Positions 2 through 24,627 of a stretch of 55,776 nt of DNA are shown here, piece after piece. How positions within the stretch are numbered: position 1 is the stretch's first letter; each line of letters begins with the position of its first letter. Position numbers and translations under genes: made by a program. Source of the stretch: a bacterium (lineage in GTDB: Bacteria; Hydrothermota; 32-111); NCBI GenBank assembly GCA_028698175.1, contig JAQVDU010000002.1:1-55776 (forward strand). The letters are read 5' to 3'. The notes beneath the pieces are model-generated. The model searched no databases. It saw only the letters and a program-made list of their open reading frames with translations, and was not told the DNA's origin.

Positions 2-1654
2 TTCTCCGAAAATGGCGAAAAGTACAATTCAACCTATAAGTATCATGAAGATGATTATATTTCATCATCAAGGAACGGCTATTATTTCAAGGCATATTCA
101 ACATTTTTTTTAAAGAATTCGCAGTCATTAAATCTGGCAGTATCAAGCGGATACACTCACGACAAGACTGCCCCCTCACATACAAAGGAGCGTGTAATCA
201 CCTACGGCGACTCCACTTCGGACACTCTCTACCCGAAGACAGACTCTCCCCTGGAGATTGTTCTCGACCCATTCAACCTCTTTGAGTATGATGATTTCAT
301 GAAACTCGAGTATGAGACTCTTTCCCTTTACAATGACTATCCGTACATGACTCTTTATGGATATGAGTATGGGATAAATGGTTATTATTTCGAAAAAGAC
401 GTGCTGACAAACTCGGCATGCATTGATTATTCAATGCCTCTTCCGGAAAACAACAGACTCACTGCCGGAGCAGGAGTGAAACAGAGAGACTATTCGCAGA
501 CAGATATCTATCTTCCATGGGACATGTATTATTTCAATGACACATATTCAACATCCTCTCTCTTCGCATACGGATTCTTAAGAAACTGTTTTGAAAGAAA
601 CAAAGTTCTTCTGGACATGAATGCAAAGGCTGATTTTGTTTCGAGAAGCGGAGTTCTCCTATCCGACTCTCTCGCCGGAGAATCTAAGAGAATTCTTCTT
701 TCATACAGATTCTCCATTCGCAGCATGATAAACGAATACTCTTCGATACGATTCTCCGCAGAGAAGGCAATTCAGCAGATTGATGAAACGTATCTCTTCG
801 CAAATGTCAATGAGGGGTTCGCGTCATCAGAGACAAGAGGGGACCCGTATTTGAATCAGCCGTCATCAGACCTCTATGATTTCGGGATTTCATTCGACCT
901 TCCTTCAGGGATATACCTCTCTACAAGCATATATTACAGAGAGATTCAGAATCTTGTGAATCTTGTAAGAATAGAGACAGTTCCATTCTCATATCGGATA
1001 TACAGCGCAAACGGAAGCCTTTACGGAAAGGGGTTTGAACTTCTCTGCGGTGCAAAGAGCCGCCATTTTGACATTGAGGCAAATTACACTTACACTACAG
1101 TAAACGAATCTCTTGACTCTTTGGGTTATTCAAGGTCATTCAGCCCGGATTATCTTTCAAAACACAAAATCAACATTCTCCATTCATTCAAACTGCCATT
1201 CTCTTCCGACGACAAGGATGACCTCTTGCTCTCATTAAACCACCAGTTCCGCTCAGGTTTGCCTGCCGACAGAGGGGTTGTGAATTATTACATACTTCCG
1301 AATCTTTATCTCGCAGACATGGCTTTGGTCAAGGAAATATCATTTGAAAACCGCAGGGCAGAGATTTACCTGAATGTTTCAAACCTCTTCAATGCAGCGA
1401 CTGTTCTCGATGTATATTCAAACACACTTGAACCGGACAAGGACTGGACCGAGGAGTTTGACCCTGACACTTTCGGCGAGTACAGAATCGGAGATGTCGG
1501 ATATGACGTGAGAAAGGATTCCGACAGGGACGGATTCGTCTCTTCTGAGGAGAACTGCGGCTTTACTCTCGGAATGTACTATGATGCTGCGTACGACCCG
1601 AACAACTATACAACGCCGAGGGAGTTTGCATTCGGAATCAGGATAACCATTTAA
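2..1654 (+). CDS. Outer-membrane beta-barrel protein, TonB-dependent-receptor-like C-terminal part (5' end lies outside the window)
   Basis: The frame of ORF 299..1654 stays open back to nt 2 with no stop, so the gene starts upstream of the window. It has a Tyr/Asn/Ser-rich alternating strand pattern, an NVSNLFNA motif and a terminal FAFGIRITI strand, typical of large OM barrels. Confidence 0.5.
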   Translation, partial: FSENGEKYNSTYKYHEDDYISSSRNGYYFKAYSTFFLKNSQSLNLAVSSGYTHDKTAPSHTKERVITYGDSTSDTLYPKTDSPLEIVLDPFNLFEYDDFMKLEYETLSLYNDYPYMTLYGYEYGINGYYFEKDVLTNSACIDYSMPLPENNRLTAGAGVKQRDYSQTDIYLPWDMYYFNDTYSTSSLFAYGFLRNCFERNKVLLDMNAKADFVSRSGVLLSDSLAGESKRILLSYRFSIRSMINEYSSIRFSAEKAIQQIDETYLFANVNEGFASSETRGDPYLNQPSSDLYDFGISFDLPSGIYLSTSIYYREIQNLVNLVRIETVPFSYRIYSANGSLYGKGFELLCGAKSRHFDIEANYTYTTVNESLDSLGYSRSFSPDYLSKHKINILHSFKLPFSSDDKDDLLLSLNHQFRSGLPADRGVVNYYILPNLYLADMALVKEISFENRRAEIYLNVSNLFNAATVLDVYSNTLEPDKDWTEEFDPDTFGEYRIGDVGYDVRKDSDRDGFVSSEENCGFTLGMYYDAAYDPNNYTTPREFAFGIRITI

Positions 1655-2761: not shown

Positions 2762-3727
2762 ATGAAAAAACTGTTTGTTCTCTTCTTGACAACTCTCTTT
2801 CTCTTGAGCTCATGCTCACTTATCGGATACAACACAATAAAGATCAGTATTCCTGCGGAGTACATCGACCAGATAGACAAACTCATCGTCTCAATTGCGA
2901 ACGGAGACGCTGTTGATGAAAAGGAGATTGAAGAGATATCCGAGGAAATCTCTTTCACTCACTTCGGATTTATAGACGTAATAATGGCATACGCTTACAA
3001 TGCGCAGGGTGTTCTTCTCTTCACCGGAAAGGGCGGAAAGAACGACCTTAACATAGAGCTTGACTATGCCGGAGCAAACGCGGCAAGCCACATTGTGATT
3101 TTTCAGGACGGACTTCCCTGGGGAACGACTTCAATGCAGGACATGCTCTTGGCAGAGGGATTCACTGAGGGAGACGGTGAGAACCAGTATGAATTCGTGA
3201 CATCGGACGAAATATCAGGATTCGGGCTCAATCCGTACACAGACCTTCTCATAATAGCCAATGACCAGGCGCAGACATTCTATGATGTTTTAGGCGCGGA
3301 CAACGGCAAAATAAATGATTTTGTTTATTCAGGAGGAACGGTTCTTTGGGAAGTGTGCGACAACGGTTGGGCGTACGGCGACATAAAATCTGCAGGAATA
3401 GAGCTTCCCGGCGGAATAGAGATAAATCTTCTCTATGAGTATTACAATACTATAATGCAGCCGGATCACAAGATGTTTGACGGCATAACTCTGACGGAAC
3501 TTTACAACAACTACGCAAGCCATGAGTATTTCACCCTTCTGCCCGCCGGAACAAACGTTCTGATGAACGGGTCGGACTCAGACCAGCCGACTCTTGTAGT
3601 GTATCCTCACGGAGCAGGAATCGTATTTATGACAGGACAGCCGCTTGAGCATGCTTACATATACAATCCGGAGTCAATGGGACTCATTCTTCCCCGTCTT
3701 GTCAAGCTTGTCTTGGGAAAACTCTGA
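2762..3727 (+). CDS. Lipoprotein with one ThuA/class-I-glutamine-amidotransferase-like module
   Basis: AAGGAGG SD upstream and a signal peptide with lipobox LLSSC. Residues ~110-305 (HIVIFQDGLPWG..LLIIANDQ..VYSGGTVLWE..ELPGG..GAGIVFMTGQPLEH) align motif by motif with the middle of the 767-aa protein at 13981. Confidence 0.8.
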   Translation: MKKLFVLFLTTLFLLSSCSLIGYNTIKISIPAEYIDQIDKLIVSIANGDAVDEKEIEEISEEISFTHFGFIDVIMAYAYNAQGVLLFTGKGGKNDLNIELDYAGANAASHIVIFQDGLPWGTTSMQDMLLAEGFTEGDGENQYEFVTSDEISGFGLNPYTDLLIIANDQAQTFYDVLGADNGKINDFVYSGGTVLWEVCDNGWAYGDIKSAGIELPGGIEINLLYEYYNTIMQPDHKMFDGITLTELYNNYASHEYFTLLPAGTNVLMNGSDSDQPTLVVYPHGAGIVFMTGQPLEHAYIYNPESMGLILPRLVKLVLGKL

Positions 3728-3863: not shown

Positions 3864-5660
3864 ATGAAAAGGATAATCCTTTTGGCATTGGTACTCACTT
3901 CATTTTTTTGCTATTCGCAAAATTTTGACAGCTTAAAAATCCTACTTATAGATTTTGACGAGGGAAAAACATTCGCAAACCCTGACAATTCTCAAAATAT
4001 AGGGTATGAATACAATTTCATAAAGGCATTCAAGGCTTTGGGGTTCAGCGAAGATTCAAACCTGGTTGTGAAGGAAAAGATACCGGAGAGTTTTGACTTG
4101 ATCAAGGACTATGCAGCAATCTTTTTCATTACAGGTCACAGACCTTATGTCGGAGTAGATTTAACTGTAGCCAATATAACAAACTTTGAATCCTATCTTG
4201 ATTCAGGAGGATGTTTGTACATTGAGGGAAACAATGCTCCAAGCGGAATTTATGACAAGGATTCCTTGTTCATGTTCAACTATTTTAACAATTCCTGCAC
4301 TGACAACGGAGGAACCGGATTTTCTGGAATAGACACGATAGTTTCAGATACCACAGACACCCTTGACCCGTTTTTCAGATTTTACAAATTTGTTTATCCG
4401 GCAAATACAAAACCGGATTCTTCAGTCGACGTCATAGGACCAAAGAACCCCAACCTTCTAAAAGTCAATTACAGAAACCTTCTGCAGTATGATGACCAGA
4501 CAAAGCTTTACAAGTCAACATCCTCTTCATACACCCCTCCGGAGACAAAGACATTCTATTTCCCCGGAAAGACAGTAATGCAGTCGGTGGCTTTCAGCGC
4601 CTTTGCCGACCCCCAGAATGCTCAGGATGCGCTTGATGATTCCCTTGAAAATCAATTGATAAGAGCGGCATATTTAAGGGACATTCTCAAATACTTCGGC
4701 ATAGGAAAAACGCTCCTTGTAAAAGATGACGGAGAGGTTGCCTTAAGCGATAAAAAAATCATTGAATCCTTGGATAAATTGGGAGTTGAATTTGATGAGA
4801 TTTCAGTTAAAACCGGAGGAGCTGGACCAAACTATAAAACTCTCGTTAAATATGCCAATGTTATCTGGTACACCGGCGAGGAGTCTACGCTCTCTCTTCT
4901 TGCGGCAGACACATTTGCATTAAGCAGGTACCTTGACTTCGGCGGTGACCTTCTTCTCTCAGGGGAGAATCTTGCTCAGGGTATAGGTGTCCCTGACACA
5001 AACACGCTTCTAAATGAAAACAGATTTTTATCAATGAAAATGAGGGTAGATTATATCGGAAACCCTTTCAAAGCTCCTGAAGGTTTCAATGCAAACGTTG
5101 ACGGGCATTTCTACGCAAACTTGGGCTCAAGAATCTGCTCCCTTGAAACAGTGACAACATCAAAACCGGACATGCTTAGGCCGTTTCTTATAGGGCACGT
5201 CGATTCTGCATTCTATTTCTACACACTCACAAAGGGCAATAATATTGTAGGCATAGCAAACGAGGGAATACTCAGAAAAACAATCTTCTGCGGTTTTTCA
5301 ATAGAAAATCTTTATCAGAGAGACCTTGATTCCGTTCTTGAGGTATCTTTTGTCGATTATTTTGACATGAACCTTGATTTCGAACCGAGGAAGTGGGATG
5401 ATGCAACCTCTTATTCAAAGAGGGATTCTGGAAAGATGTTTGTTAAAACAAACGAAAATTCCCCGAAAGTATTCTGCGTTCAGAGAACCCTATTTGTCGA
5501 AGGACTTTCAAAGCCAGAGCTTCTTGACATATCAGGGAGGAATCTGACAAACCTTGAAAGCGGGTATAACAAATTAACATCCGACATAAAAAGCGGCGTC
5601 TATTTTGTAAGAGGAGAGTATCGCGGTTCTTTCTATGTGAAAGTGATAACGGTTTTTTAA
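3864..5660 (+). CDS. Secreted T9SS-cargo protein, paralogue A (two ThuA/GATase1-like modules plus C-terminal sorting domain)
   Basis: GGAGG SD and a signal peptide. Internal duplication (KILLIDFDEG..LDSGGCLYIEGNN and KTLLVKDDGE..LDFGGDLLLSGEN). The C-terminus SGVYFVRGEYRGSFYVKVITVF fits the T9SS type-A CTD pattern. Confidence 0.85.
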   Translation: MKRIILLALVLTSFFCYSQNFDSLKILLIDFDEGKTFANPDNSQNIGYEYNFIKAFKALGFSEDSNLVVKEKIPESFDLIKDYAAIFFITGHRPYVGVDLTVANITNFESYLDSGGCLYIEGNNAPSGIYDKDSLFMFNYFNNSCTDNGGTGFSGIDTIVSDTTDTLDPFFRFYKFVYPANTKPDSSVDVIGPKNPNLLKVNYRNLLQYDDQTKLYKSTSSSYTPPETKTFYFPGKTVMQSVAFSAFADPQNAQDALDDSLENQLIRAAYLRDILKYFGIGKTLLVKDDGEVALSDKKIIESLDKLGVEFDEISVKTGGAGPNYKTLVKYANVIWYTGEESTLSLLAADTFALSRYLDFGGDLLLSGENLAQGIGVPDTNTLLNENRFLSMKMRVDYIGNPFKAPEGFNANVDGHFYANLGSRICSLETVTTSKPDMLRPFLIGHVDSAFYFYTLTKGNNIVGIANEGILRKTIFCGFSIENLYQRDLDSVLEVSFVDYFDMNLDFEPRKWDDATSYSKRDSGKMFVKTNENSPKVFCVQRTLFVEGLSKPELLDISGRNLTNLESGYNKLTSDIKSGVYFVRGEYRGSFYVKVITVF

Positions 5661-5695
5661 CTTTTATTGTTTATTCTAAATCATAGGGGAGTAAA

Positions 5696-7492
5696 ATGAA
5701 AAGAGTTCTTATTTTTGTGACTGCAATCTTTTCATTATCGGCATTGTGCCAGAATTTTACTGATCTGAAGATTCTCCTCGTGGATTCGGACGACGGAAAG
5801 ACCTTTCTGAATCCCGACAATAATTCAAAATCCATTGGCTATGAATATAATTTTTTCAAAGCATTTGAAATGCTCGGGTTTGACACTCTTTCCGGAAATT
5901 TAAAGAGGGGAAAGCTTCCTCTTGTTTTTAATGAATTCAAGCAATATGCTGCAATATTCATAGTTTTCGGACACAGCACCGTTGACGCTACAGACCTTTC
6001 TCTTTCTGATATCGACAATCTTGAGGGCTATCTTGAGTCCGGCGGATGCCTTTACATAGAGGGCAACAATGCCATAAGCCACATTCAGGGGTTGGACTCT
6101 CTCTTTTTGTTTCTTTACTTCAATAATTCCTGCTTGAGCGACGGAGGCGCCCTGTTCTCCGGAATTGATACGATAGTATCCGACACGACGGACACTCTTG
6201 ACCCTTTTTTCCGTCTGTATAAGTTTGTTTACCCGGCAAATACAAAACCGGATTCTTCAGTTGACGTCATTGGACCAAGGGACCCCGGTCTTCTAAAAAT
6301 ATATTATAAAAATCTTCTTAAATACGACGACCAGACAAAACTCTATAAATCAGTCTCTTCGTCTTACACTCCTCCGGAAACAAAAGTTTTCCATTTTAAT
6401 GGAAGAACCATAATGCAGTCTGTTGCTTTCGGAGCATTCTCAGACCCGCAGAATGACGATGACCGTTTGGATGATTCTCTTGAGAACCAGCTTGTCAGAG
6501 CTTCATATTTAAGGGATATATTGAAATTTTTCGGAATTGGAAAGACGTTACTTGTGAAAGATGACATGGGAGAGTCGGGCAGCGACACAATTATAAGAGC
6601 TTCGCTTGACAGTTTAAAAATCGACTATGACATTATTCCTGTCGCCTCTAAAGCGGATGGACCCGGATACAAAACTCTATCTGAATACAGCGCGGTTATA
6701 TGGTACACGGGCGATGCAGACACTTCATTCACTTTAACCAAGCAGGACACTTTTAATCTTGGGATCTTTCTGTCTTACGGCGGAAATTTGATTCTGTCCG
6801 GAGAAAATATCGCGACAGACATAGGATTTCCTGATACTAACTACAAGCTGGAAAATCCTTTTCTGGCAAAGAATTTCGGTATGGATTTCATCGGAAAGAA
6901 CAAGACCCTTACAAGTTCATTCAGGGCATTTGCCTCCTCCGACTCGGTGCTGAATCCGTATTATGAAAACGGATACACGAGAATCTGCTCCCTTCAATCT
7001 TCAAGCAAGCCTGACCTGATATTCCCCACAAACCTTCGGGGAACCCACGTTTATCCCACGTACTATTTTCACACTCTTACAAAAGGAGACAATATGGTCT
7101 CTCTCTTTTATGAGGGTGAGAACAAAAGAACAATTTTTTTCGGTTTTCCCATTGAGGATATCCTTGCGGGAATGCTTGATTCCACCTTAAAGGTTTCTTA
7201 TGAAGACATCTTTGACATAAATCTTGATTTCAAACCTATTGACAGTCTTCGCTGGTTGAATACTCAAAAGGATTTTCTGAAGTTCAGACAGAAGGAAAAA
7301 ACATCTTCTCCAATGATTTTTCTTTGGCAAAAGAGCTTGTTTTTATTCGGTGCATGCGAAGCGGATATAATTGACCCTGCGGGAAGATTCATGATGAAAA
7401 TTTATGAAGGGGAAAACAGCATAGAAAAACTTTCCCGCGGAATATTCTTTGTAAAGGGAAAGAGCTTTGCAAAAAAAATCAGCATTTTATAA
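5696..7492 (+). CDS. Secreted T9SS-cargo protein, paralogue B (tandem duplicate of 3864..5660)
   Basis: Same length (598 aa) and collinear with paralogue A. C-terminus RGIFFVKGKSFAKKISIL. The 41-aa block FSGIDTIVSDTTDTLDPFFRLYKFVYPANTKPDSSVDVIGP is shared with A at 40 of 41 positions. Confidence 0.85.
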   Translation: MKRVLIFVTAIFSLSALCQNFTDLKILLVDSDDGKTFLNPDNNSKSIGYEYNFFKAFEMLGFDTLSGNLKRGKLPLVFNEFKQYAAIFIVFGHSTVDATDLSLSDIDNLEGYLESGGCLYIEGNNAISHIQGLDSLFLFLYFNNSCLSDGGALFSGIDTIVSDTTDTLDPFFRLYKFVYPANTKPDSSVDVIGPRDPGLLKIYYKNLLKYDDQTKLYKSVSSSYTPPETKVFHFNGRTIMQSVAFGAFSDPQNDDDRLDDSLENQLVRASYLRDILKFFGIGKTLLVKDDMGESGSDTIIRASLDSLKIDYDIIPVASKADGPGYKTLSEYSAVIWYTGDADTSFTLTKQDTFNLGIFLSYGGNLILSGENIATDIGFPDTNYKLENPFLAKNFGMDFIGKNKTLTSSFRAFASSDSVLNPYYENGYTRICSLQSSSKPDLIFPTNLRGTHVYPTYYFHTLTKGDNMVSLFYEGENKRTIFFGFPIEDILAGMLDSTLKVSYEDIFDINLDFKPIDSLRWLNTQKDFLKFRQKEKTSSPMIFLWQKSLFLFGACEADIIDPAGRFMMKIYEGENSIEKLSRGIFFVKGKSFAKKISIL

Positions 7493-7571
7493 ACAACCGA
7501 ACTAAAGAACAACTCTTCCGGAAATCCAAATCGTATTGCATAATTGTTATTTTATGTTAAAATAACATATT

Positions 7572-13980: not shown

Positions 13981-16284
13981 ATGAAGAGGGTGTTATGTTT
14001 TTCATTTATTCTGTTTGTGTTTTTGTCTTTATCAGCCTCTTCGGGAGGCTCTCCAAACAAAGAGAACAGCTCTTTCAACGGCTACCTTGTCTCCGACTCT
14101 GTCATTGACACACTGAACTATGGCAGAACAGGCTCAAACGGAATTGAATTCGACGGAAGGTATTTTTACATTGCAAATGCAGTGCCGGACCCCGCCTTTG
14201 TTTACAAATTTGACTACATATACGGGCTTCTCGATTCTTTTGTCATGCCGGCAAACGGAAACATTTTCGGCATAGGCATACAGAACAACAATTTGTACGT
14301 AGCGAACTGGACAAACGGCACCATCCACAAGCTTACGGTTGACGGAACCCCAATAACAACACTGACATCTCCTGCGGGCACAGGCACAAGGGGAGTGACA
14401 AGCGACGGAGCAAACCTATACATCGCCTCAACAAACGGCGGAACAAACACAGGCTTCATATTTGTCACTGATACCCTGATAAACATTCTCGACACAATTC
14501 ATATAGCATCCATTGTCGGATGGCCTATGGACATTGCATTCTGCGATGTTGATTCTACACTATGGGTTCTTGACGATACTGCAAACAAAGTGTGGAAACT
14601 CGACATATCGGTTGACCCTCCTGTGATTGTGGATTCCCTGCCTGTTCCTTTCGGAGGCTCCCTTACGGGCGAGGGCGTCGCCTTTGACGGAAATGACCTT
14701 TGGATTACAAATTACTCTGATACTTTTGCTTACAGGTATGACCTCGGCATAGCGAAGACAAGGGTGGCTTATTTTGAGGACCATGCTCCATGGACATCTT
14801 GGGCGAACGAGGATATTCTATGCAGAAACAGAGTTGCATTTCATTACTTCACATCCCTGGATCTGCCTACTGTTGATTTTTCAAAGTTCCAGAAGGCAAT
14901 ATTCGCAAGCCAGCAGGAAAACACATTTTATACTGCGATAACGGACAATAGGTCGATGCTTGAATCATGGATAAACAATGGCGGAATATTCCAGCTGAAC
15001 GGAGCAACTTATGATTCATATTCATGGGCGGGGCAGATTATGCCGGGAGGATTTTCAATGGTTCAGCAGATGATTGACACTGCGACAATAATGAGCGCAT
15101 GGCATCCGCTTTTGAATGAATTCTACACAGCAGATTCCGCCAGCCTTGTCGATTGGGGCAGCGTGATGCACGGAAGACTTACAAATCTGCCTGCAGATGC
15201 TTACAATGTGCTTTTAACTGGCGACTCTCTCAATGCGGGTCTTTCAATATTCAGAATGGGAAAGGGCGGAGTCATAGCCACTACGCTTACTGCGGAATAT
15301 GCTTTCGACAATGCCTTCTCAGAAATTGCAGAGAATATAGACATGTACTGGATAAACGGCTGCTCTCCAAATGTGCTTTGGGCCGTGGCCGATCCTCCTG
15401 CGCCGGTTATAACAAAGGCGATAGAGGAGTATCCTGATTTCGGCAACATTGACTATATGGATTCAAGGACCTTCATTCCAAGCCAGTTGGATATGTCAAT
15501 GTACGATGTCGTTTTAACATTTCCCGATTATTCATACGCTGACGCAGAGCTTATGGGAGATTCTCTTTTTGAGCATGTTCTTAACGGCAAATGGGTTGTG
15601 ACATGCGGATGGTCATGGTACACTACCGGAAATTACCTCGGAGGCGAGATAATGAATCCTACATACAATCCATTCTCTCCGCTTGACGGAACAAATCATT
15701 TGTCAAACGCGAATCTCGGAACATTTGTTGCGGGACATGAATTCATGAACAATGTTTCAACTCTCACATCATATTTCAGGGATTATCTTGTTCTCAATTC
15801 CGGAGCAGACACTGTTGCAAGGTGGAGCGATGACGAATGGCTCCTCGGGTACAGAAACCTTCCGGGAATCATGGGAGGCATAGTGGGTCTCAACATTGTG
15901 CCTTCTGATGATTATGTCTCCGGGGGAGAACTCGCTGGGGATTACGTTCAGCTTGTTCACAACGTTCTTTTGGTCTCTGAACTTACTCCTGTCGAGGAGA
16001 TTGCCCTTGATGGAAGATCAAATGAATTCAAGACAGAGGTAACTTCTATCACATCTGGAATTTTCAGGGCATCATTTTCTTCTCCAGTCATGGAACATAC
16101 GCTCATTTCTGTATATGACAAAACCGGAAGGGTTGTCTTTGAGAAAGATTTTTTCAATGCAAACGGTCTTAGAGAGGTCTCCTTTGACGCTTTAAAAGAG
16201 AATATTTCATCCGGAGTTTATTTCTTCAGAATCTCTTCCGGGAAAAATCTTGTAAAAGGAAAATTCCTTTACATTTCAAAGTGA
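13981..16284 (+). CDS. Secreted T9SS-cargo protein: NHL-like beta-propeller plus ThuA/GATase1-like module plus C-terminal sorting domain
   Basis: Signal peptide present. Repeated blades (GIEFDGRYFYIAN, NNLYVANWTNGTIHKL, GANLYIAS, STLWVLDDTANKVWKLD, GNDLWITN). The middle region is homologous to the 2762 lipoprotein. C-terminus SGVYFFRISSGKNLVKGKFLYISK. Confidence 0.85.
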   Translation: MKRVLCFSFILFVFLSLSASSGGSPNKENSSFNGYLVSDSVIDTLNYGRTGSNGIEFDGRYFYIANAVPDPAFVYKFDYIYGLLDSFVMPANGNIFGIGIQNNNLYVANWTNGTIHKLTVDGTPITTLTSPAGTGTRGVTSDGANLYIASTNGGTNTGFIFVTDTLINILDTIHIASIVGWPMDIAFCDVDSTLWVLDDTANKVWKLDISVDPPVIVDSLPVPFGGSLTGEGVAFDGNDLWITNYSDTFAYRYDLGIAKTRVAYFEDHAPWTSWANEDILCRNRVAFHYFTSLDLPTVDFSKFQKAIFASQQENTFYTAITDNRSMLESWINNGGIFQLNGATYDSYSWAGQIMPGGFSMVQQMIDTATIMSAWHPLLNEFYTADSASLVDWGSVMHGRLTNLPADAYNVLLTGDSLNAGLSIFRMGKGGVIATTLTAEYAFDNAFSEIAENIDMYWINGCSPNVLWAVADPPAPVITKAIEEYPDFGNIDYMDSRTFIPSQLDMSMYDVVLTFPDYSYADAELMGDSLFEHVLNGKWVVTCGWSWYTTGNYLGGEIMNPTYNPFSPLDGTNHLSNANLGTFVAGHEFMNNVSTLTSYFRDYLVLNSGADTVARWSDDEWLLGYRNLPGIMGGIVGLNIVPSDDYVSGGELAGDYVQLVHNVLLVSELTPVEEIALDGRSNEFKTEVTSITSGIFRASFSSPVMEHTLISVYDKTGRVVFEKDFFNANGLREVSFDALKENISSGVYFFRISSGKNLVKGKFLYISK

Positions 16285-16294
16285 TTTTGTTTGC

Positions 16295-16320
16295 AAAAGG
16301 GGGGCTTTGCTCCCCTTTTA
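16295..16320 (+). terminator. Intrinsic terminator after the 767-aa cargo gene
   Basis: aaaaggggggc-ttt-gctcccctttt hairpin starting 11 nt after the stop, ending in and followed by T-rich sequence. Confidence 0.75.
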
Positions 16321-16322: not shown

Positions 16323-16351
16323 TTGACTTTTTTTTTATAAAGATATAGAAT
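16323..16351 (+). promoter_or_regulatory. sigma70-type promoter TTGACT-17 nt-TAGAAT for the Tyr-rich barrel operon
   Basis: TTGACT at 16323-16328, a 17-nt spacer, TAGAAT at 16346-16351. Lies directly after the upstream terminator. Confidence 0.5.
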
Positions 16352-16436
16352 AAATCAAATACAAGGAGGTATTTGGGAATTGTATAAATCTATTAATGAT
16401 AAATCAAAAGAAACAATCAAAACAAAGGAGGAAAGG

Positions 16437-18062
16437 ATGACCTTTAAGAGAGTTTTGTTTTTACTTGCACTCTCGGTTCTCTGCATTTCCGTGTCTGCTC
16501 AGTTCGCATCATTCAGGAGCCTGTCGACTGCAGGACTTTTGGATGACAACATTGAGGCGATACTTGCGGTCACCGAGATGACCTATGTTGACGGATTCAA
16601 CATATTCACAAACCTTTCAAACTTCGACTATCAGTCGGAGGACATTTTTGACGGCTATTCTGACAATTATCTCATAGGATTCAAGGGTTCGATGATGGAC
16701 ATGCTCCACCTCGGATTCCTATCCGCGTCAGAGGGCTACAAATACGGCTACACAGACACTGTCACGTCGACAGAGTACATTGACAACAACGGCGACGAGC
16801 AGTATGACGAATTCATCACAGAGAATGAGACTGATGAATATTTTGAAGGAGATAACTACTCAACAAACTTCGTCGCATTCACATTCGGAAAGCCTGAAGG
16901 CGTCAAAGCCGGATTCTCCTACACCAATTACAGGGGCAACTATGCTTACGATGAGGTTTATACTGATGTCGTGAGGGATTCAAACAGAATCTCCGGCGAT
17001 TTGATGAGGCTTTACAATGAGTGGTATTATTATGATTATACTAATCCGTACACTGATAACGCTCTCACCCTTAACGGCGCATTTTCAACAGGCGCGATGG
17101 AGTTCGCACTCAACATAGGGCTTGAGTTCCTCAAGGGCAATTACTTTGACTATGAAGTGGACTCATTCATTGAGGACCTCTCACCTGCAAACCCCTCGAT
17201 GCCTTTCCAGTATAGCGGAGTTTACAATGACTCAACAGAGTACACTCAGAACGGCTTCGGTTGGAACGTGGGTCTTCAGATGTACTACAGAACTTCGAAT
17301 CAGGATTCAATAGAGTTCGGAGGATACGTCTCAAATGTAAACTACGGAAAAGCGCACTACACTTCAAACTATTCAAACCAGTATGATGCAATTTATCCCG
17401 GCATTGTTGAAAATGAAACATACTCATATGACTACAATGACTCTTACGGCGACTCAACAAGTTCATTTGCTGAAGCATACATGTCATGGGGCGTCGGCGG
17501 AAAATTCGTCAAAAAGCTTGAAAAGGCGCACTTTGCAATGGGAGCATTCTTCGGCCAGTATAAAAACAGCGAAATTGACACTTCAAATTATGACTACACC
17601 TACGAAGAGAGATACAATGACGGAAACGGAATGGATGACTTAGGCGACTATGAGTACTATGAAGAGGGTTCATACTCAAGAGAGTATGCCTACAATTCTC
17701 TTGGTACATACATTTACCTGCCGGTAGGCATTGAGTATAACTTCTGGGGTCCTTTGACGGGAAGGCTCGGAGCAGAGACGAACCTCAGTTGGTACAACTC
17801 ATACAGCTCTGAAAAGTTCTTCGCCTTTGACCCGGGAACATACACTATAACCTATGGCGACGGATCCGTCTATGAATACCTCAATGATCATGACTCATAC
17901 AGAGAGGATTATTCCTACGGATATTCGTCTTTTGACCGCTCAACATACTTCTCATACGGAATAGGATGGGAAATTTCAAAGAATGTCAAAGTTGATTTCA
18001 TGGGATTCTCAGACCTCACCGATATGACAGACTGGTCAATTTCAGCCAATGTCAAGTTTTAA
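16437..18062 (+). CDS. Tyr/Asp/Asn-rich outer-membrane beta-barrel-like protein, unknown family
   Basis: AAGGAGG lies 5 nt before ATG 16437, followed by signal peptide MTFKRVLFLLALSVLCISVSAQ. I count ~66 Tyr in 541 aa and no Cys after the signal peptide. Ends in an OMP-like terminal SISANVKF. The tracked ORF starts at TTG 16380, giving an in-frame 19-aa leader with its own SD. Confidence 0.75.
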   Translation: MTFKRVLFLLALSVLCISVSAQFASFRSLSTAGLLDDNIEAILAVTEMTYVDGFNIFTNLSNFDYQSEDIFDGYSDNYLIGFKGSMMDMLHLGFLSASEGYKYGYTDTVTSTEYIDNNGDEQYDEFITENETDEYFEGDNYSTNFVAFTFGKPEGVKAGFSYTNYRGNYAYDEVYTDVVRDSNRISGDLMRLYNEWYYYDYTNPYTDNALTLNGAFSTGAMEFALNIGLEFLKGNYFDYEVDSFIEDLSPANPSMPFQYSGVYNDSTEYTQNGFGWNVGLQMYYRTSNQDSIEFGGYVSNVNYGKAHYTSNYSNQYDAIYPGIVENETYSYDYNDSYGDSTSSFAEAYMSWGVGGKFVKKLEKAHFAMGAFFGQYKNSEIDTSNYDYTYEERYNDGNGMDDLGDYEYYEEGSYSREYAYNSLGTYIYLPVGIEYNFWGPLTGRLGAETNLSWYNSYSSEKFFAFDPGTYTITYGDGSVYEYLNDHDSYREDYSYGYSSFDRSTYFSYGIGWEISKNVKVDFMGFSDLTDMTDWSISANVKF

Positions 18063-18077
18063 TTTTAGGAGGAAACA

Positions 18078-19331
18078 ATGAAAAGATTTATACCATTGAT
18101 TCTTGCCATACTGCTGATTGCCGCAGGCTGCACATTCAAGCCCTATGACGGAACAGATTATTCGGCAGACTTTGAGCCGGCCACAACGGGAACTGTCGCT
18201 ATTCAGCTCACAGGTTCAAGTCCTGCTAACGGAGGCAACATTCAGGACACGGATTTCGACACCGGGGACATTGAAGGAATCATATACATTTACTTCAATG
18301 ATTACCTCAATTCAAGCGCCGCCACTGCGACAAACTTCGCCCTTAATCCAAACGGCTCTGCAGGAACGATAACTTCGATAACTGTGGCCTATGAGAAGAA
18401 TTTCAGAAGGGTAAAGCTTACAGGCACATTTGCAAATAATGCGACATACTCTTTGAAGATATCTGCAGACGGAGTCAAATCGGCAGGCGGATGCTACATT
18501 GACGGAAACGGAAACGGAATCGACGACGGTTCCCCGTATGATGACATCTACTTCCAGTTTGCAACAGGAACCGGTAACGACTGGGCAGACCATGACAACC
18601 CGCGCCTGAACGGCTTCTGGCCTGAGGGCGGACAGGTTGCGGTTGACGGCGGATTTCTTGTCACTTTTGATGAAGTAGTCGAATCAACTGACGTGGTAAA
18701 CGGAGTCACTCTTGTAAGAGAGAGCGACGGAATGAATATAAACCTTGAACTTCTTGTCTACTTCGGAACAGGTGCGTTATTCGGAGTCAACGGAGGAGAT
18801 TCGCTTGCGCAGAGACAGGCATACCTTATGACTGTCGAACTCAACACAATATCAGACTCAGCAGGAAACACTGCTCTTGCTTACAATGATCCATATACTG
18901 CAGAGACGCCTGACTTTGTGTCAAGGTTCGTCACAGAGTCCTATGAGGGAGATGATGACACCCCGCCGACAGTTTGGAATATAAGCTTCCCTTGGGGCGG
19001 CGACTTCATGACCATAAACTTTGACGAAGCAATGGACATTACAACACTCACTTCAAACAACATTAAATTCTATGCCGACTTCGGAAACGGACCGGTTTAT
19101 GTGCCCGGAGACCTTTATGTCAGGCCTGACACAACAGCTGTTGAGTATTCGCTCATAAACTTCAACTGGGATGATTTCAATCAGGGTCTTCTTGTTATTG
19201 AAAAAGAAGTCACGGACAACTCGGACAAGAAGTGGATGCTTGATGCAAACGGAAACGGAATCGGCGGAGAAGAGGCAGACATTACAAGACACGGCTATGA
19301 AGATTCCGATAATTACAACGAATGGTTCTGA
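18078..19331 (+). CDS. Lipoprotein with SbsA/Big_5-like Ig domains and DGNGNGIDDG calcium-site-like loops
   Basis: GGAGG SD and lipobox IAAGC. Repeated 'ATNFALNP..VKLTG..YSLKIS'-type Ig-like segments. Two D-x-N-G-N-G-I-(D/G) loops. Confidence 0.7.
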   Translation: MKRFIPLILAILLIAAGCTFKPYDGTDYSADFEPATTGTVAIQLTGSSPANGGNIQDTDFDTGDIEGIIYIYFNDYLNSSAATATNFALNPNGSAGTITSITVAYEKNFRRVKLTGTFANNATYSLKISADGVKSAGGCYIDGNGNGIDDGSPYDDIYFQFATGTGNDWADHDNPRLNGFWPEGGQVAVDGGFLVTFDEVVESTDVVNGVTLVRESDGMNINLELLVYFGTGALFGVNGGDSLAQRQAYLMTVELNTISDSAGNTALAYNDPYTAETPDFVSRFVTESYEGDDDTPPTVWNISFPWGGDFMTINFDEAMDITTLTSNNIKFYADFGNGPVYVPGDLYVRPDTTAVEYSLINFNWDDFNQGLLVIEKEVTDNSDKKWMLDANGNGIGGEEADITRHGYEDSDNYNEWF

Positions 19332-19352
19332 TTTTTGATTTAATGGCTTTAT

Positions 19353-19383
19353 AAAAAAGGGGGCTATAAGCCCCCTTTTTTTT
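19353..19383. terminator. Bidirectional intrinsic terminator between convergent genes
   Basis: A-run, then gggggct-ata-agccccc, then a T-run. Serves 18078..19331 (+) and 19392..22157 (-). Confidence 0.85.
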
Positions 19384-19391: not shown

Positions 19392-22157
19392 TTAACGCAA
19401 TACGGAAACCTTCTTTAAAATTTCTTTATCCGATGTTTTTACTCTCACAAAATAGACTCCGGTCTTAAGATTCTGTCCCACATCTGCTGTAAAGGTCTCT
19501 TTATCGGCAAAAACCTTTTTCTTTGCTACGACTCTTCCGGAAACGTCTGTTATGGTTATCAATGCCTCGCCTGCGGAAGATCCAAGGAAAAGAACCTTTA
19601 CGCTCTTCATGTCGGAGTTTATCATTATTGAATTATCGGCTCTTTTTTTATCTTCAATGCAGACGGCAGAGAGGTCTCCGAAGAGGCCAAGAACATTTTT
19701 TACCAACTCGGCTGCATCTGCCGTATTCATGTAAAACAGAGGAACTGCCGCTACAACAGCAGAAGTGTCATTTGCTGCGAAGATAATCGGTTTCATGTGA
19801 AAGGCAGTGTCTCCCACTGTCGAATGGTAGAGTCCCAGAGGATAAGACGAACCTGTTAAACCGAATACTCCTCCATAATACATGTTTCCGTCTCCTCTTG
19901 GAAGCTTTTCTTCCACAAAGCGCGCAGTATCACTAACTCCGTTTATAGACCAGCTTACATATTCAAGCTGGTAGAGAGTGTTTCTGTTGTAATAATCTAT
20001 TCCAAGAAGAGTTCTGGCATCCGAAAGGGACTCTGAGAAAGCAGGGAATGTCGTCGGATTATCGAGGAGGGATTTTCCTATATTCCATCCGAAGAGAGCC
20101 ACTCTTCCGCCTGCCTCTATATAATCATAGAGGTCTTCATAGTCTATTTTGTTTGCGCTCAGATCATCATCGATGTAAAGAATTCTTTTGTAAAGGCCGA
20201 ATTCCATCATTGAAGTTGAAGCTATCGAATCGGCGTCTATAATTTCATATGCGAAATTGCCCATGATTGAATCATAAAATGCGTCAGTAGCGCCGTCAGT
20301 GGCGGTTCCTCCGTTGTTTGTCTCATCAATCACCAGGAGCTCTTTCACTCTGCTGACAATCCTTGTTTTTAAGGTGTCGGAGGGAGCAGACTCGTTCGAG
20401 TCAAAGTCGATTGCAGTCACATAGTAGCTGTATACGGCGCTGTCAGACAGAGAACCATCAACGTAAGTTGTATCCGACGTAGTGTCAACCGCAAAGAAGG
20501 AACCTTCTCCTATTCTTCTGTAGATTTTGTAATGAGAAAAATCGGCCGCCTTTGACGAATTGTAGAGAATCCTGATCTCAGAGGATGAACCGTATGCGTC
20601 TATGCACGAGATTTTGTTTGGTACAAACGAAGGCCTTACGGTGTCTGTCGCTTCGGAAAATGCCTCTATCCCTGACGTATCTATCGGAGTTATTCTGAAT
20701 GTATAAAGGAGACCCGGAATCAAGGATGAAACATTGTATTCGTTTGTATCGGGAGCGTCTGCAAACTGTTCAAAAGCATCTCCTTCTTTTTTATAGTATA
20801 TCCTGTATGAAGATATGTCATTGTTTATTGTTTTTATCCAGGAGACCGAGACGGAAGAGTCGCCATTGTCAACAATGGAAAAATCCGTCACGGGAAGCGG
20901 CATTTGGGAGAGATAGTAAGCGGTTGCTGTTCCGGTTTGCGCCAACTCTTTCATGAAGTCAAAGTTGAGAAGATGTATTGAATCCTTTGTAGAATGGTAT
21001 ACTGGGGAAAAGTCATATTCAATGGCGAATGCAGATTTGAATCCTGCCAGGTCGAAAGGATAGTGGTCGCTTCCGGAGCTTGAACCTCCGATATGGGTTA
21101 TCAGCGTTGTGAATGTGTCAGCCATCATCTTGAAAATGTTTTTAAGAGGGAGGGAGTGCGTCATTCCGTATAGGTCATACTGGTATGTTGAAGACGGGTT
21201 GTAACCTATCATGTCAAAGTTGACCATTCCAAGAACGTGCATGCTGTTTGGAATTATGTAATTGTTCACGAAATACTCTGAGCCGTAAAGGCCGAATTCC
21301 TCGCCTGAGAATAAAACAAAATATATATCGTAATCGCTTTCGACTGACATCAGAGACCTTGCGGCTTCAAGAACTCCGGCTGAACCGGAAGCATTGTCAT
21401 CCGCCCCCGGGGCTATGTAATAATTATTGGAATAATCGTCATAGTGGGCTCCTACAACAATGCACGTATCATGAGAGATGGTTCCTCTCTTAAGTCCGAC
21501 AACATTCTTCGTGTTGTAGACGCTGCCGTAAGAAAAAGAGAAGTTTTGAAAATATACAGAATCAAAACCCATGGAATCCATCACAGATTTCAGATAAACC
21601 GCGGCTGAATCAACCCATGTGGTGACTGAGACCCTCGAAGCGCTATAGGTCCCCTGCGGATACGGAATTTCTCCGCTGAGTATCGCCACTTTTTCATAAA
21701 GAGAATCTGCAGAAATAATGTTTATAAGAGAATCAATTTCGCCCATAAAGCTTTTTTTGCCGGGGAGGTAGGGATTATAATCATACTTATACGTTTCTTT
21801 TATAGGCCTTTCAAAATTCAGGTTAAATATTTCCCATTCTCCTCTTTCTTCTGCAGAGGGAATCCTGTCAAGAAGAAGAATTGAAGATTCAAAATCTGCA
21901 AAGAGATATTCTGGAATATTCTTTACTCTGTTTTTGTCGTGAGAAAGAGCAATGAAGTAGTCTTTTCCCTGATCAAAGGGAATTTTCATAATAATTTCGC
22001 CTTTGGCGGAATTATCTTTTGAAAGCCCTATTTTGAAAGCTTCAAGGTCATAGTAGGTTGTTGTGTTTTGAGCTTCTCCATTGAAAATGATTATTTCATC
22101 GGAAAAGGCAAAAATTGACACTGTTGCAAGAAACAGCAGAAGATAAAATTTTTTCAT
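19392..22157 (-). CDS. M28-family aminopeptidase with FN3-like repeats, a ThuA/GATase1-like module and a T9SS C-terminal sorting domain
   Basis: M28 metal ligand motifs GAHYDD, PGADDNASGSAGVLE, FSGEEFGLYGS, DMIGY. Then KELLVIDETNNGG..RILYIDDD..IEAGGRVALFGWN. C-terminus KTGVYFVRVKTSDKEILKKVSVLR. Confidence 0.88.
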   Translation of the reverse strand: MKKFYLLLFLATVSIFAFSDEIIIFNGEAQNTTTYYDLEAFKIGLSKDNSAKGEIIMKIPFDQGKDYFIALSHDKNRVKNIPEYLFADFESSILLLDRIPSAEERGEWEIFNLNFERPIKETYKYDYNPYLPGKKSFMGEIDSLINIISADSLYEKVAILSGEIPYPQGTYSASRVSVTTWVDSAAVYLKSVMDSMGFDSVYFQNFSFSYGSVYNTKNVVGLKRGTISHDTCIVVGAHYDDYSNNYYIAPGADDNASGSAGVLEAARSLMSVESDYDIYFVLFSGEEFGLYGSEYFVNNYIIPNSMHVLGMVNFDMIGYNPSSTYQYDLYGMTHSLPLKNIFKMMADTFTTLITHIGGSSSGSDHYPFDLAGFKSAFAIEYDFSPVYHSTKDSIHLLNFDFMKELAQTGTATAYYLSQMPLPVTDFSIVDNGDSSVSVSWIKTINNDISSYRIYYKKEGDAFEQFADAPDTNEYNVSSLIPGLLYTFRITPIDTSGIEAFSEATDTVRPSFVPNKISCIDAYGSSSEIRILYNSSKAADFSHYKIYRRIGEGSFFAVDTTSDTTYVDGSLSDSAVYSYYVTAIDFDSNESAPSDTLKTRIVSRVKELLVIDETNNGGTATDGATDAFYDSIMGNFAYEIIDADSIASTSMMEFGLYKRILYIDDDLSANKIDYEDLYDYIEAGGRVALFGWNIGKSLLDNPTTFPAFSESLSDARTLLGIDYYNRNTLYQLEYVSWSINGVSDTARFVEEKLPRGDGNMYYGGVFGLTGSSYPLGLYHSTVGDTAFHMKPIIFAANDTSAVVAAVPLFYMNTADAAELVKNVLGLFGDLSAVCIEDKKRADNSIMINSDMKSVKVLFLGSSAGEALITITDVSGRVVAKKKVFADKETFTADVGQNLKTGVYFVRVKTSDKEILKKVSVLR

Positions 22158-22212: not shown

Positions 22213-24627
22213 TTAATAAAACCCACATTCTTTGATTGCATTGTATCCTTCGCTTTCCACATCCTCCCCGAAAAGAGCATATTCCGGAAGATATACTCCT
22301 GAAGAAAGTGGCAAAATGGCTGTTGACCTCCCTTGGGACTCTTTGTTTTGCCCCAAAAATCCTGCGCAGAGATATTCATCGACTTTCTTGCAGAATATAT
22401 AAGAGGAATTTCCGGTTTCAAAGAATTTCTCTCCGTCTTTTATGCAAAAATCATCGATTTGTATCAGAGTCTTTTTGAAAATTTTCATGGCGGAAGAATT
22501 TTTATCAGGAACGCCTATAAAAACTATGTTTTTTTTCTGCGTGGAGTCAAAGAGTGTGTCAGGAAGAATTTCGCACGCGCCGAGACACTTGACTGTAAAG
22601 AGGTTGTGAATATAGAGCGCCTGTTCGTATGAAACATTGGAATTTTTCTTGTCTGTCGAGTAGACAATCGCGAAGGGCTTCATGAATGCATATTTGACAA
22701 GAGTGTAATCTTCCCTTTTCAACGAAGACTTGACTCTGACAAAATCTTTGTTTTTTAAGGCGAATGACTGATTTTTAGCGCCATCCGCCAAAAACTCTTT
22801 GCCGTCTATTACAAACTTTATTTTTCCGGAGTAGGCGCCTTTCGCATTTAGTATTGTAAACCCCTCCACGTTCTGTGTTGTGATGATTATTTCATTCGCC
22901 TTTAATTCAGCAGTTATGCTTGATTTTTCGTATTTATGAACCTGCCTGTCTATTCTCACAAAATCCGAAGAATCGGATTCATAGAGGGAATACGTGGTGA
23001 ATGAAGAGATTCTGTTCAAAACCTGTCGCTTGGATTTTTCAATGAAATTTCTTATAAAATCAGAGTCAATGCAGTCCACTCCCGAGGTCTCTTCAATGTC
23101 AAACCAGTGTCCCATTCCGGCGAATTCAATGAATTCGGATTCAATGCCAATCCTTTGCAACTCATTAAAAAACATCCTTGACTGATAAACCGGCACATTA
23201 TCGTCAATCTCTCCGTGCACAAGAAGAATCTTTGCATTCATAAGGTTGTTTAAAAAATTGAGAGGATTTTCAGAGCTTTTAAGCAGATTTACTATTCCGA
23301 ATGCTTTACCGTTTGAAAGAAGATTGATTCTCGAGTATGTCTTGGGAATATATGTTTCAAAGTTTATCCAACCGCTTGCAGGCACCACGCTTGAAAACAT
23401 CCATCCGTAAAGAGAACCCAGATACATTGCTCCGTGTCCTCCCATTGAATGGCCCGTTAGGGATATCTCAGAATCAATTATGCGATATTTCTCTTTGATT
23501 TTTTTTAAAACCTCCAGGAAATCAATTCTTCCTAAATCCTGCCAGTCGAATCCGAACTCTCCCCTGTTTGTGGGACAGACGAGAATATGCGTCTTCGAGC
23601 TTCTGTAAGCCATCGCCTGATTTTCCGCCTTTACTCCAGCTCCGTGAAGGGATACGGACAGTGGATAAAAGAGAGATGTTGAAAAATCTTCCGGAAGTCT
23701 GACAGCATAGTATTGAACCGATGAATCAACCTCCGAAACGAATGTCTCTTTTCTAACTTCATTAAGATTCTTCACTTTAAAATTCAGATTTGTTCTTAAA
23801 GTATCAGTCCCTGACTCTATCAGAATCTCTGCAAACTCCTCTTCACCTATAGACTTCTCTTTCATTGATATGGAAAGAGGTATGTTTTTAACTCCCATGG
23901 GCGGAAGAATGTCTGTGCGTTCTTCTACTGCAAAGAGAGAATCCCTTTCTGAGGAGAAGACCTTGACTCTCTGCCATTCTGCAGTTGAATTGAGAAGGCA
24001 GACCGAGACAACACCCTTCATGAGAGAATCTTTGATAATGTCAAAGACGAGGGTTGCATTTTGTAGGAAAACTATAATATTTTCAGGTTCATATATTTTA
24101 GTATATCCTTCAAAATATCCGTAATATCCGCTTGTTATAAAAGAAATGGAATTCTCCCCCTCTTTCACCAAAACAGGAATTTTGATTTTTCCAGTCTTGT
24201 ACGGATCGCCCGGATATTTAACCGAGTTAATATAGAAACCTGATACTCCGCCAACCTCGGCAAGAAGAACTTTCTCTTTCTTAGAATGGAAGCTTGAAAA
24301 ACAGTAATAGGATGTAAGGATTCCAGACAAACCCATCGCATCCCATGCGCTCTTCATCTTCAATGTATCAGAAGAGAGTGAAATAATCTTATTTTGAAAT
24401 GAGAATTCACTAAATTCAAGGAGTTCCTGATTAAAGAATCGATAATTGAATTTTTTCTGCCGGTAGTCGTTGAAGTCGGCATGAAACTCGACCGGAAGAG
24501 AAAAATCTTTTAAAGAAGCGTGCATCGGCCCCAGAACCTTCCATTCCTCAGGAAAGATTGTCTCTGCGCTCAACCCCGCCCGGACAATAAAAAGAAAAAC
24601 AAAAAGAAAAATCTGCTCTTTTTTCAA
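22213..24627 (-). CDS. Secreted alpha/beta-hydrolase (prolyl-oligopeptidase S9 / esterase type) with large N- and C-terminal extra domains
   Basis: Signal peptide present. Nucleophile elbow GHSMGGHG, then LLVHGEIDDNV (Asp) and GMGHWF (His) in the S9/esterase order. Confidence 0.75.
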   Translation of the reverse strand: MKKEQIFLFVFLFIVRAGLSAETIFPEEWKVLGPMHASLKDFSLPVEFHADFNDYRQKKFNYRFFNQELLEFSEFSFQNKIISLSSDTLKMKSAWDAMGLSGILTSYYCFSSFHSKKEKVLLAEVGGVSGFYINSVKYPGDPYKTGKIKIPVLVKEGENSISFITSGYYGYFEGYTKIYEPENIIVFLQNATLVFDIIKDSLMKGVVSVCLLNSTAEWQRVKVFSSERDSLFAVEERTDILPPMGVKNIPLSISMKEKSIGEEEFAEILIESGTDTLRTNLNFKVKNLNEVRKETFVSEVDSSVQYYAVRLPEDFSTSLFYPLSVSLHGAGVKAENQAMAYRSSKTHILVCPTNRGEFGFDWQDLGRIDFLEVLKKIKEKYRIIDSEISLTGHSMGGHGAMYLGSLYGWMFSSVVPASGWINFETYIPKTYSRINLLSNGKAFGIVNLLKSSENPLNFLNNLMNAKILLVHGEIDDNVPVYQSRMFFNELQRIGIESEFIEFAGMGHWFDIEETSGVDCIDSDFIRNFIEKSKRQVLNRISSFTTYSLYESDSSDFVRIDRQVHKYEKSSITAELKANEIIITTQNVEGFTILNAKGAYSGKIKFVIDGKEFLADGAKNQSFALKNKDFVRVKSSLKREDYTLVKYAFMKPFAIVYSTDKKNSNVSYEQALYIHNLFTVKCLGACEILPDTLFDSTQKKNIVFIGVPDKNSSAMKIFKKTLIQIDDFCIKDGEKFFETGNSSYIFCKKVDEYLCAGFLGQNKESQGRSTAILPLSSGVYLPEYALFGEDVESEGYNAIKECGFY

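Follow-up and report, generated by a model that had tools for sequence, protein, structure and literature searches.

This report concerns a two-gene unit on the plus strand (positions 16323-19383) of a 55,776-nt stretch of bacterial DNA, contig JAQVDU010000002.1, which as a whole is called the window below. The first gene (gene 1) encodes a secreted protein with predicted outer-membrane β-strands, and the second (gene 2) encodes a lipoprotein made of immunoglobulin (Ig)-like domains. The two genes form one bicistronic operon, as seen from their promoter, their Shine-Dalgarno (SD) sites, the 15-nt gap between their open reading frames (ORFs) and the terminators on both sides (Table 1), and they stay next to each other in distantly related bacteria. 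Judged by sequence comparison, both families are undescribed, and the two products very probably make up an outer-membrane barrel-lipoprotein complex of a new family.

A first reading of the DNA letters (the original prediction) had described such a two-gene unit, with these ORFs, a TTGACT-17-TAGAAT promoter and strong bracketing terminators, and comparison with related loci upholds the description. Six loci were aligned at the promoter, that of the window and those of five relatives (barrel protein identity 43-74% in the best segment); the -35 sequence TTGACTT is invariant among them, and a TAnAAT-like -10 sequence and the SD-ATG region are conserved. Because of this conservation of the -35 and -10 sequences, the promoter is not a chance match. 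The hairpins flanking the unit both have folding z-scores near -3.5. Relatives of the locus each carry a hairpin of their own at the place of the left one, and the right one is common to the unit and to a convergent M28 peptidase gene (19392..22157, minus strand). The presence of an SD inside the gap suggests that gene 2 is co-translated with gene 1.

Two AAGGAGG sites precede gene 1 (16363 and 16425), as had been predicted, but the TTG at 16380 behind the first of them was rejected as the start codon. Since six of seven full-length homologues start with MTFKR or MxxK at ATG 16437, where the signal peptide also begins, the extension from TTG 16380 is probably not translated. The leader also holds the motif AAATCT(A/T)T(T/C)A (16386-16395), placed between the -10 sequence and the SD and conserved in all six of the aligned relatives, which might be an mRNA-stability or regulatory element.

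High expression of the operon is indicated by RNA contigs, by codon usage and by a near-consensus promoter that relatives conserve. In metatranscriptome X7, RNA contigs span about 1610 nt of the 2.9 kb that the pair occupies, compared with about 2100 nt in all the rest of the window (53 kb). Within an 18-kb stretch, the genuine RNA matches in X25, X26 and X27, which come from two other studies, fall on gene 1 and on no other gene, and RNA of gene 1 is present in all four metatranscriptomes. The preference of the pair for codons ending in C (0.62 and 0.64) is among the top three of the window. This preference is the part that stands of a predicted monotony of tac, gac and aac codons, which was overstated for tyrosine, with 38 TAC and 28 TAT codons in gene 1; the ORFs open in alternative frames within the gene have 63-106 codons' worth of residues (63-106 aa).

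Distribution and conservation of the gene pair

A word-seeded search of 5.8 billion proteins recovered only 10 relatives of gene 1, and the same 10 again when the 68-sequence family alignment was the query. Among 1.84 billion cluster representatives, searched exhaustively with a profile, there were 317 relatives at E≤1e-3, nearly all of them 540-630 aa long and matched from end to end. The source names looked up for homologues all read 'hypothetical protein', except for one automatic 'autotransporter barrel' label. A genome scan placed the barrel in metagenome-assembled genomes (MAGs) labelled WOR-3, TA06, Edwardsbacteria, Cloacimonadota, Zixibacteria and Gemmatimonadetes, and a further look-up added FCPU426. 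No locus of the scan is clearly from Bacteroidota; the MAG of locus L013 is labelled Bacteroidales but has a WOR-3-type neighbourhood.

Of 26 informative loci, a count that leaves out three in which the contig ends, 23 have the barrel gene next to a gene encoding Big_5 domains; the pairing extends over WOR-3/TA06, Zixibacteria, Cloacimonadota, Edwardsbacteria, FCPU426 and a MAG labelled Gemmatimonadetes. A profile of gene 2 homologues matches the ORF directly downstream of the barrel gene with E values from 1e-51 to 1e-170. Three further adjacent pairs lie in loci L027, L029 and L031, and in L032 the order is reversed, the Big_5 gene lying just upstream of the barrel gene with a 65-aa ORF between them. 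When neighbouring ORFs were clustered, the barrel-lipoprotein pair alone was common to all clades: the convergent peptidase gene, whose product combines M28 and fn3 domains with a C-terminal domain (CTD) of the type IX secretion system (T9SS), adjoins the pair only in the ten closest loci, and a PmbA/TldD pair does so in six. The identities of the gene 1 and gene 2 proteins drop in parallel across relatives, and adjacency is kept down to about 20% identity while other neighbours change. The original prediction of a barrel and lipoprotein of unknown family in one self-contained operon is thus extended across phyla, and the frequent separation of the two genes that would have spoken against it is the opposite of what is seen.

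Some loci differ in copy number or arrangement. L009 and L011, which each hold a barrel copy about 33% identical to the window protein, lie in the same WOR-3 MAG (JAXHVG01), and paralogous pairs therefore exist. A partnerless subclade is formed by the genes of L028 (5001-6770) and L030 (6001-7761), which encode proteins of 586-589 aa and follow NHL-repeat and SSB genes. In L028 a PorV-like gene lies 4 kb upstream of the barrel gene and the gene for a 1139-aa CTD protein lies downstream, and in L030 the place directly upstream is taken by a 565-aa ORF that is unrelated and belongs to no known family.

Sequence and predicted structure of the two proteins

The protein encoded by gene 1 contains 66 Tyr among its 541 residues (12.2%), compared with 4.46% in the 42 other ORFs of the window (binomial P 3e-13). 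Acidic residues outnumber basic ones by 82 to 28 (net charge -54), no Cys follows the signal peptide, and the sequence includes the runs WYYYDYTNPY (aa 196-205) and GDYEYYEEGSYSREYAY (aa 403-419) and the C-terminal SISANVKF. The predicted signal peptide, Tyr count, Cys-free mature part, C-terminal Phe and unusual runs could all be found again in the sequence. The first mature residue is Gln (16497-16505, aa 21-23), which is kept in close relatives and resembles the 'Q-rule' of Bacteroidota, whose exported proteins have pyroglutamate N-termini. Over 68 family members the Tyr content averages 6.8% and ranges from 2.7 to 13.1%; extreme Tyr content is a trait of the close clade only and not of the barrel family, and Tyr-richness was for this reason rejected as the key to the function of gene 1. 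Conservation is highest elsewhere, at S25, F26, R27, D37, L60 and N62 of the N-terminal part (at least 90% in 68 sequences) and, where the late strands lie in the membrane, at P429, E433, R443, G445, Y507, G508 and D520.

The AlphaFold2 (AF2) model of gene 1 built from the 68-sequence alignment has a pLDDT of 89.9 and a pTM of 0.82, and supersedes an earlier model from 9 sequences (pLDDT 75.8) with disordered termini. It runs from the signal peptide through a helical N-terminal segment to two short strands, twelve long strands and two more short strands. The helices of the N-terminal segment are at 26-30, 38-43 and 45-50 (pLDDT 86-93 for aa 31-60), and the short strands are at 55-58 and 77-86 before the long ones and at 517-522 and 534-540, ending in Phe, after them. 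The long strands are joined alternately by turns of 2-5 residues and by tips of 5-10 residues, among them the 10-residue loop DGNGMDDLGDY between strands 364-394 and 405-437. When the strands are written from the short-turn end, their first ~10 residues alternate in hydrophobicity (e.g., LHLGFLSAS, FTFAVFNT, AHFAMGAFFG, LTGRLGAETN). The remaining extensions comprise 242 polar residues, with 52 of the 66 Tyr (21%) and 46 Asp or Glu (19%). In the model, only the ~10 residues of each strand beside the periplasmic turns look membrane-embedded.

The general features of outer-membrane proteins (OMPs) are thus all present, namely a signal peptide, amphipathic strands, periplasmic turns of 2-5 residues, a terminal Phe and structural neighbours that are exclusively OMPs. 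By its model, gene 1 is a secreted all-β protein with OMP-type membrane strands. We infer a barrel of ~16 strands, two short, twelve long and two short, whose twelve long strands would form an acidic turret rising, as estimated from strand length, several tens of angstroms over the membrane. The N-terminal helical segment may possibly act as a hatch-like plug.

Foldseek searches of the PDB returned only outer-membrane barrels (TonB-dependent transporters, BamG, NalP, OmpT and FadL homologues), in agreement with the barrel-like fold that had been predicted and with the all-β meander of the model. The best local matches were TonB-dependent barrels with long strands (E 8e-6 to 1e-3). The 9-sequence model matched the BamG chain 9hiv_F with a probability of 0.92 and TM-scores of 0.22-0.28; the FadL homologue 3dwo scored 0.17-0.20 with this first model and fell outside the top 50 with the 68-sequence model. 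A search of BFVD with the gene 1 model gave no match.

No described family could be assigned to the barrel by sequence, as had been supposed. Gene 1 has no match at E≤1 in Pfam or NCBIfam, including Plug, TonB_dep_Rec, Toluene_X and PorV, and the family profiles A1 and A2 found nothing significant among PDB sequences (best, an Opa protein, E 0.09). A Pfam scan of the 68 family members gave weak OMP_b-brl_2 matches in four, and one match each to Toluene_X (0.0044) and EF-hand_5 (0.0039). A confident match to a porin, FadL or PorV would have placed the protein in a characterised family; the 68-sequence profile aligned with E. coli FadL at an hhalign probability of 1.6%, and the model has ~16 strands, 12 of them of 26-35 residues, where the FadL/Toluene_X fold has 14. 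A TonB-dependent or SusC identity is contradicted by the missing Plug match, by a pre-barrel segment of only ~55 residues and by a strand number of ~16 and not 22. A PorV identity finds no profile match either, and in L028 the family member stands beside a separate PorV-like protein. The sorting domains that mark T9SS cargo (Por_Secre_tail/CHU_C) are absent from the C-termini of both gene 1 and gene 2. Literature on outer-membrane proteins of WOR-3/TA06 and on T9SS in Cloacimonadota and Zixibacteria yielded nothing on this barrel family.

Gene 2 had been predicted to be a lipoprotein of SbsA/Big_5-like Ig segments with two D-x-N-G-N-G-I loops, and this is supported in each part. Its protein matches Big_5 (PF13205) with an E value of 2.7e-15 (57.4 bits, gathering cut-off 23.6), and its internal repeats align with one another in hhalign (domains 1 and 3, 97%; 1 and 2, 94.5%; 2 and 3, 87%). 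The lipobox is LIAAG-C18, with a Cys invariant in 28 of 28 homologues. With 62 acidic and 19 basic residues, the protein has a net charge of -43. The loops lie at aa 142-148 and 389-395; in the consensus of the homologues, domain 1 ends in LDGNGNGI.DGSPYDD and domain 3 in LD.NGNGIGGE. In distant loci, too, the partners are built of Ig-type Big_5 modules alone, except that one also carries a MAM-like domain; catalytic domains are absent from all of them. The gene 2 family profile has no match among PDB sequences.

Table 1. Features of the two-gene unit, in window coordinates (aa numbers refer to the encoded protein).
Feature	Position	Strand	Remarks
Intrinsic terminator of the upstream gene (13981..16284)	16295..16319	+	Left boundary of the unit; -16.6 kcal/mol, z -3.4, then T-run
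Sigma-70-type promoter, TTGACT-17 nt-TAGAAT	16323..16351	+	10 of 12 consensus positions
5' untranslated leader	16352..16436	+	AAGGAGG at 16363 and TTG at 16380; motif AAATCTATTA at ~16386-16395; functional SD AAGGAGG at 16425-16431
Gene 1, 541 aa	16437..18062	+	
Signal peptide, aa 1-21, ending SVSA/QF	16437..16499	+	Read from the sequence; low-pLDDT helix in the model
Conserved N-terminal segment, aa 22-76	16500..16664	+	Motif SFR..STAG..DD....DPA......G..YTNLSN; most conserved block of the family
Twelve long β-strands, 26-35 residues each, aa 90-512	16704..17972	+	AF2 secondary structure
Hairpin-tip loop DNNGDEQYD, aa 116-124	16782..16808	+	Calcium-site-like; family consensus D.DG.G.YD; D116, Y123 and D124 invariant (alignments A1, A3)
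Hairpin-tip loop DGNGMDDLGDY, aa 395-405	17619..17651	+	Calcium-site-like; consensus Y.DGD...D..DYT (aa 393-405); G396 and D404 invariant
C-terminal strand SISANVKF, OMP β-signal-like, terminal Phe	18036..18059	+	W533, S536, K540 and terminal F conserved
SD of gene 2, AGGAGG	18067..18072	+	5 nt 5' of the gene 2 ATG, in the 15-nt gap
Gene 2, lipoprotein of three tandem Big_5 Ig-like domains, 417 aa	18078..19331	+	Lipobox Cys18 at 18129-18131
Loop DGNGNGIDDGSPYDDI, end of Ig domain 1, aa 142-157	18501..18548	+	D142, G143, D150, G151, P153, Y154, D155 and D156 invariant or at least 90%
Loop DANGNGIGGEEAD, end of Ig domain 3, aa 389-401	19242..19280	+	D389, N391, G396 and G397 invariant
Bidirectional intrinsic terminator	19353..19381	.	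-21.7 kcal/mol on the plus strand, -19.9 on the minus strand; A-/T-runs on both sides

Possible roles of the complex

Barrel genes that stand beside co-conserved lipoprotein genes in hosts of the FCB group are also known from SusC/SusD, RagAB and BtuB-BtuG. SusC-type barrels have 22 strands with a Plug and a TonB box, whereas gene 1 has ~16 strands and neither Plug, TonB box nor TonB_dep_Rec match, and the SusD partner has a tetratricopeptide-repeat (TPR) fold in place of the Big_5 Ig domains of gene 2. With FadL, TodX and PorV, gene 1 shares an N-terminal [ST]AG...DD....[DN]PA-like motif that is, in our own reading, reminiscent of the FadL hatch, as well as a conserved G..E....R.G motif in the late strands; the strands of gene 1 are, however, two to three times longer, and no profile match connects the families. 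Omptins (OmpT/Pla) resemble gene 1 in having strands that continue well over the membrane, and OmpT and NalP are among the weak Foldseek matches. Nevertheless, omptins are 10-stranded proteases with a known active site, lack a lipoprotein partner and show no sequence likeness to gene 1. Gene 2 is a true member of the Big_5/SbsA Ig proteins, with three tandem copies of the domain, and differs from them as a lipoprotein paired with a dedicated barrel and in domains 1 and 3 ending in conserved loops.

In the explanation favoured here, to which as a whole we give an even chance, barrel and lipoprotein would make up an abundant complex at the surface of the outer membrane, whose channel is passive and partly plugged and whose turret is stabilised by calcium. 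The proteins of gene 1 and gene 2 would form one outer-membrane complex, probably the major OMP of these organisms. The twelve long strands would extend 16-25 residues past their membrane part into an acidic turret, with 21% Tyr in this clade, and the D-x-D-G-type loops at its hairpin tips would probably bind calcium. Because conservation peaks in the N-terminal motif and in the membrane residues of late strands, a plug or constriction is inferred at the N-terminus: the segment may fold into or under the lumen, so that it and three conserved residues there (E433, R443 and D520) narrow the channel. The lipoprotein would be carried to the cell surface and dock on the turret, where its DGNGNG loops may share calcium-mediated contacts. 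Given that gene 1 has no TonB plug, the complex may be a passive, TonB-independent channel, while the turret and the Ig-lipoprotein would make a stable, cation-cross-linked outer surface and ligand-capture structure. The chances of this combined role, a channel plus a surface scaffold, are rated a little short of even.

Several points weigh against this explanation. Barrel closure, strand count and turret height are read off the predicted secondary structure only, and all Foldseek TM-scores of the model are ≤0.25, its global shape being unlike any solved barrel. Calcium binding by the loops of the barrel and of the lipoprotein is suggested by no more than their motif resemblance. The RNA matches are assembled contigs, which measure abundance poorly, and an adjacent partner is missing in the WOR-3 locus L021 as well as in the subclade of L028 and L030. 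Furthermore, the residues that follow the lipobox Cys (CTFKPYDG) are unlike the acidic export signal of Bacteroidota lipoproteins, and distant homologues have K-K-E-N-P or Q-K-A-E there. The acidic export rule is known for Bacteroidota only, and the mismatch does not exclude surface exposure.

The absence of an acidic signal would also suit two independent neighbours that are merely co-regulated, a general porin and a periplasm-facing outer-membrane lipoprotein, with neither complex formation nor surface display. Family members without an adjoining partner and the reversed order in L032, with its intervening 65-aa ORF, agree with such independence. It is nonetheless unlikely, given that adjacency survives phylum-level divergence in which the other neighbours all change, that the short gaps carry an SD, and that both proteins are strongly acidic and have the same D-G-N-G loop type. 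An equally poor candidate is a role in envelope biogenesis, either as a counterpart of the BamG/BamH canopy of the BAM machinery or as a Slam-like barrel that exports the neighbouring lipoprotein. BamG and BamH are likewise a barrel and a lipoprotein; their N-termini are best conserved and meet at the barrel wall, and BamG2-BamH2 is an operon pair (PMC12578637). The present families too are best conserved at the N-terminus of the barrel and, in the lipoprotein, in the residues directly behind the Cys, BamG chains are among the weak Foldseek matches of the first model, and the pair of L029 lies among housekeeping genes. BamH is moreover reported to occur in no phylum but Bacteroidota, and sister phyla might therefore rely on a different system. 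On the other hand, BamG is a 14-stranded member of the Toluene_X/FadL family, to which gene 1 has no match, as it has no sequence or global-fold likeness to FadL or BamG, and BamH is described as a crescent-shaped scaffold and not as a series of Ig repeats (PMC12578637). Neither bamA nor bamD adjoins the pair in any locus examined, and a near-consensus promoter and dominance in RNA would be expected of a structural protein made in bulk rather than of an assembly factor.

Secretion offers a further reading, in which gene 1 would be a PorV-like or attachment-complex barrel that receives or anchors CTD proteins, with the Ig-lipoprotein as adaptor. Both flanking genes encode Por_Secre_tail-like C-terminal domains, the M28-fn3-CTD peptidase is a conserved convergent neighbour in 10 close loci, L028 combines a PorV-like gene 4 kb upstream with a CTD protein downstream, L031 has a Big_5-CTD protein nearby, and the barrel family is confined to FCB-type phyla that use such domains. 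CTD genes are, however, so dense in the window, with at least 5-6 of them, that adjacency to one is expected by chance, and it was therefore discounted as evidence for a T9SS link. The M28 neighbour is limited to one clade, and since L028 encodes a separate PorV-like protein, the barrel family is not the PorV orthologue. With no PorV match in Pfam or NCBIfam for gene 1, no CTD on gene 2 and no clearly Bacteroidota locus in the genome scan, Bacteroidota being the model phylum of T9SS, this link too is considered improbable. Least credible of all, and regarded as very improbable, is a specialised cation- or mineral-binding surface, a possibility that the original prediction had offered; here particles of metal or mineral would nucleate on the Tyr/Asp-rich turret or be bound by it. 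Such a role could draw on the 21% Tyr and 19% Asp/Glu of the strand extensions, on the net charges of -54 and -43, and on the several D-x-D-G-type loops. Since members with as little as 2.7% Tyr keep the architecture and the partner, the conserved function cannot lie in Tyr-richness, and the pair has no metal-related genes linked to it.

Beyond the favoured surface complex, a bolder version can be formulated, which we rate as doubtful, though somewhat less so than the alternatives just weighed. In this version the pair would be a hitherto unrecognised core envelope machine, of a new barrel architecture, in the FCB candidate phyla outside Bacteroidota (WOR-3/TA06, Zixibacteria, Cloacimonadota and relatives), where a closed, calcium-clamped turret of ~12 strands on a wider membrane barrel would hold the Ig-lipoprotein, as the unit of a surface-layer lattice or as a replacement for the BamG-BamH canopy or for the T9SS attachment platform. 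The outer membranes of WOR-3/TA06, Zixibacteria and Cloacimonadota are known from genome predictions only, and these organisms are common in digesters, landfills and sediments. The operon looks to be among the most strongly expressed of their envelope genes. If confirmed, the pair would enlarge the set of barrel-lipoprotein complexes by a new family whose tall-strand architecture is unusual, and it would provide a handle on how these uncultured bacteria build and use their surface, with consequences for nutrient entry, phage receptors and surface display. Several hundred clusters of 'hypothetical' proteins would also gain an annotation name.

The surrounding window

T9SS-type CTDs are unusually dense around the pair (3864-9533, 13981-16284 and 19392-22157); at least 5-6 of about 45 genes carry them, several of them peptidases (S8, M28), which points to a secreted-protease lifestyle. 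Two tandem 598-aa paralogues (3864..5660 and 5696..7492) are 54% identical, have signal peptides and belong to no Pfam family; they end in the T9SS-sorting-domain-like tails SGVYFVRGE and GIFFVKGK. The genes for a 767-aa CTD protein (13981..16284) and an S9-type peptidase (22213..24627) have no counterpart in the TA06 32_111-like locus L001, which is syntenic apart from them, and are lineage-specific insertions around the conserved pair.

The segment 36956-46023 contains dnaA, dnaN, gidB (rsmG) and parA/parB, together with genes for a class A penicillin-binding protein (PBP) and an OmpA-domain protein, and the window therefore spans the chromosomal origin region. Two further genes may encode envelope proteins. 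The gene at 2762..3727 encodes a lipoprotein-like protein (LLSSC) of 321 aa that has no match in Pfam or NCBIfam and the highest C-ending codon preference of the window (0.66). RNA contigs of X7 cover it at 2838-3239 and 3423-3700, and it is probably another abundant envelope protein. A 451-aa ORF at 299..1654, with 9.3% Tyr and faint matches to TonB-dependent receptors (E 0.03), looks to be either the barrel portion, from the C-terminal end, of a divergent receptor or another unusual OMP.

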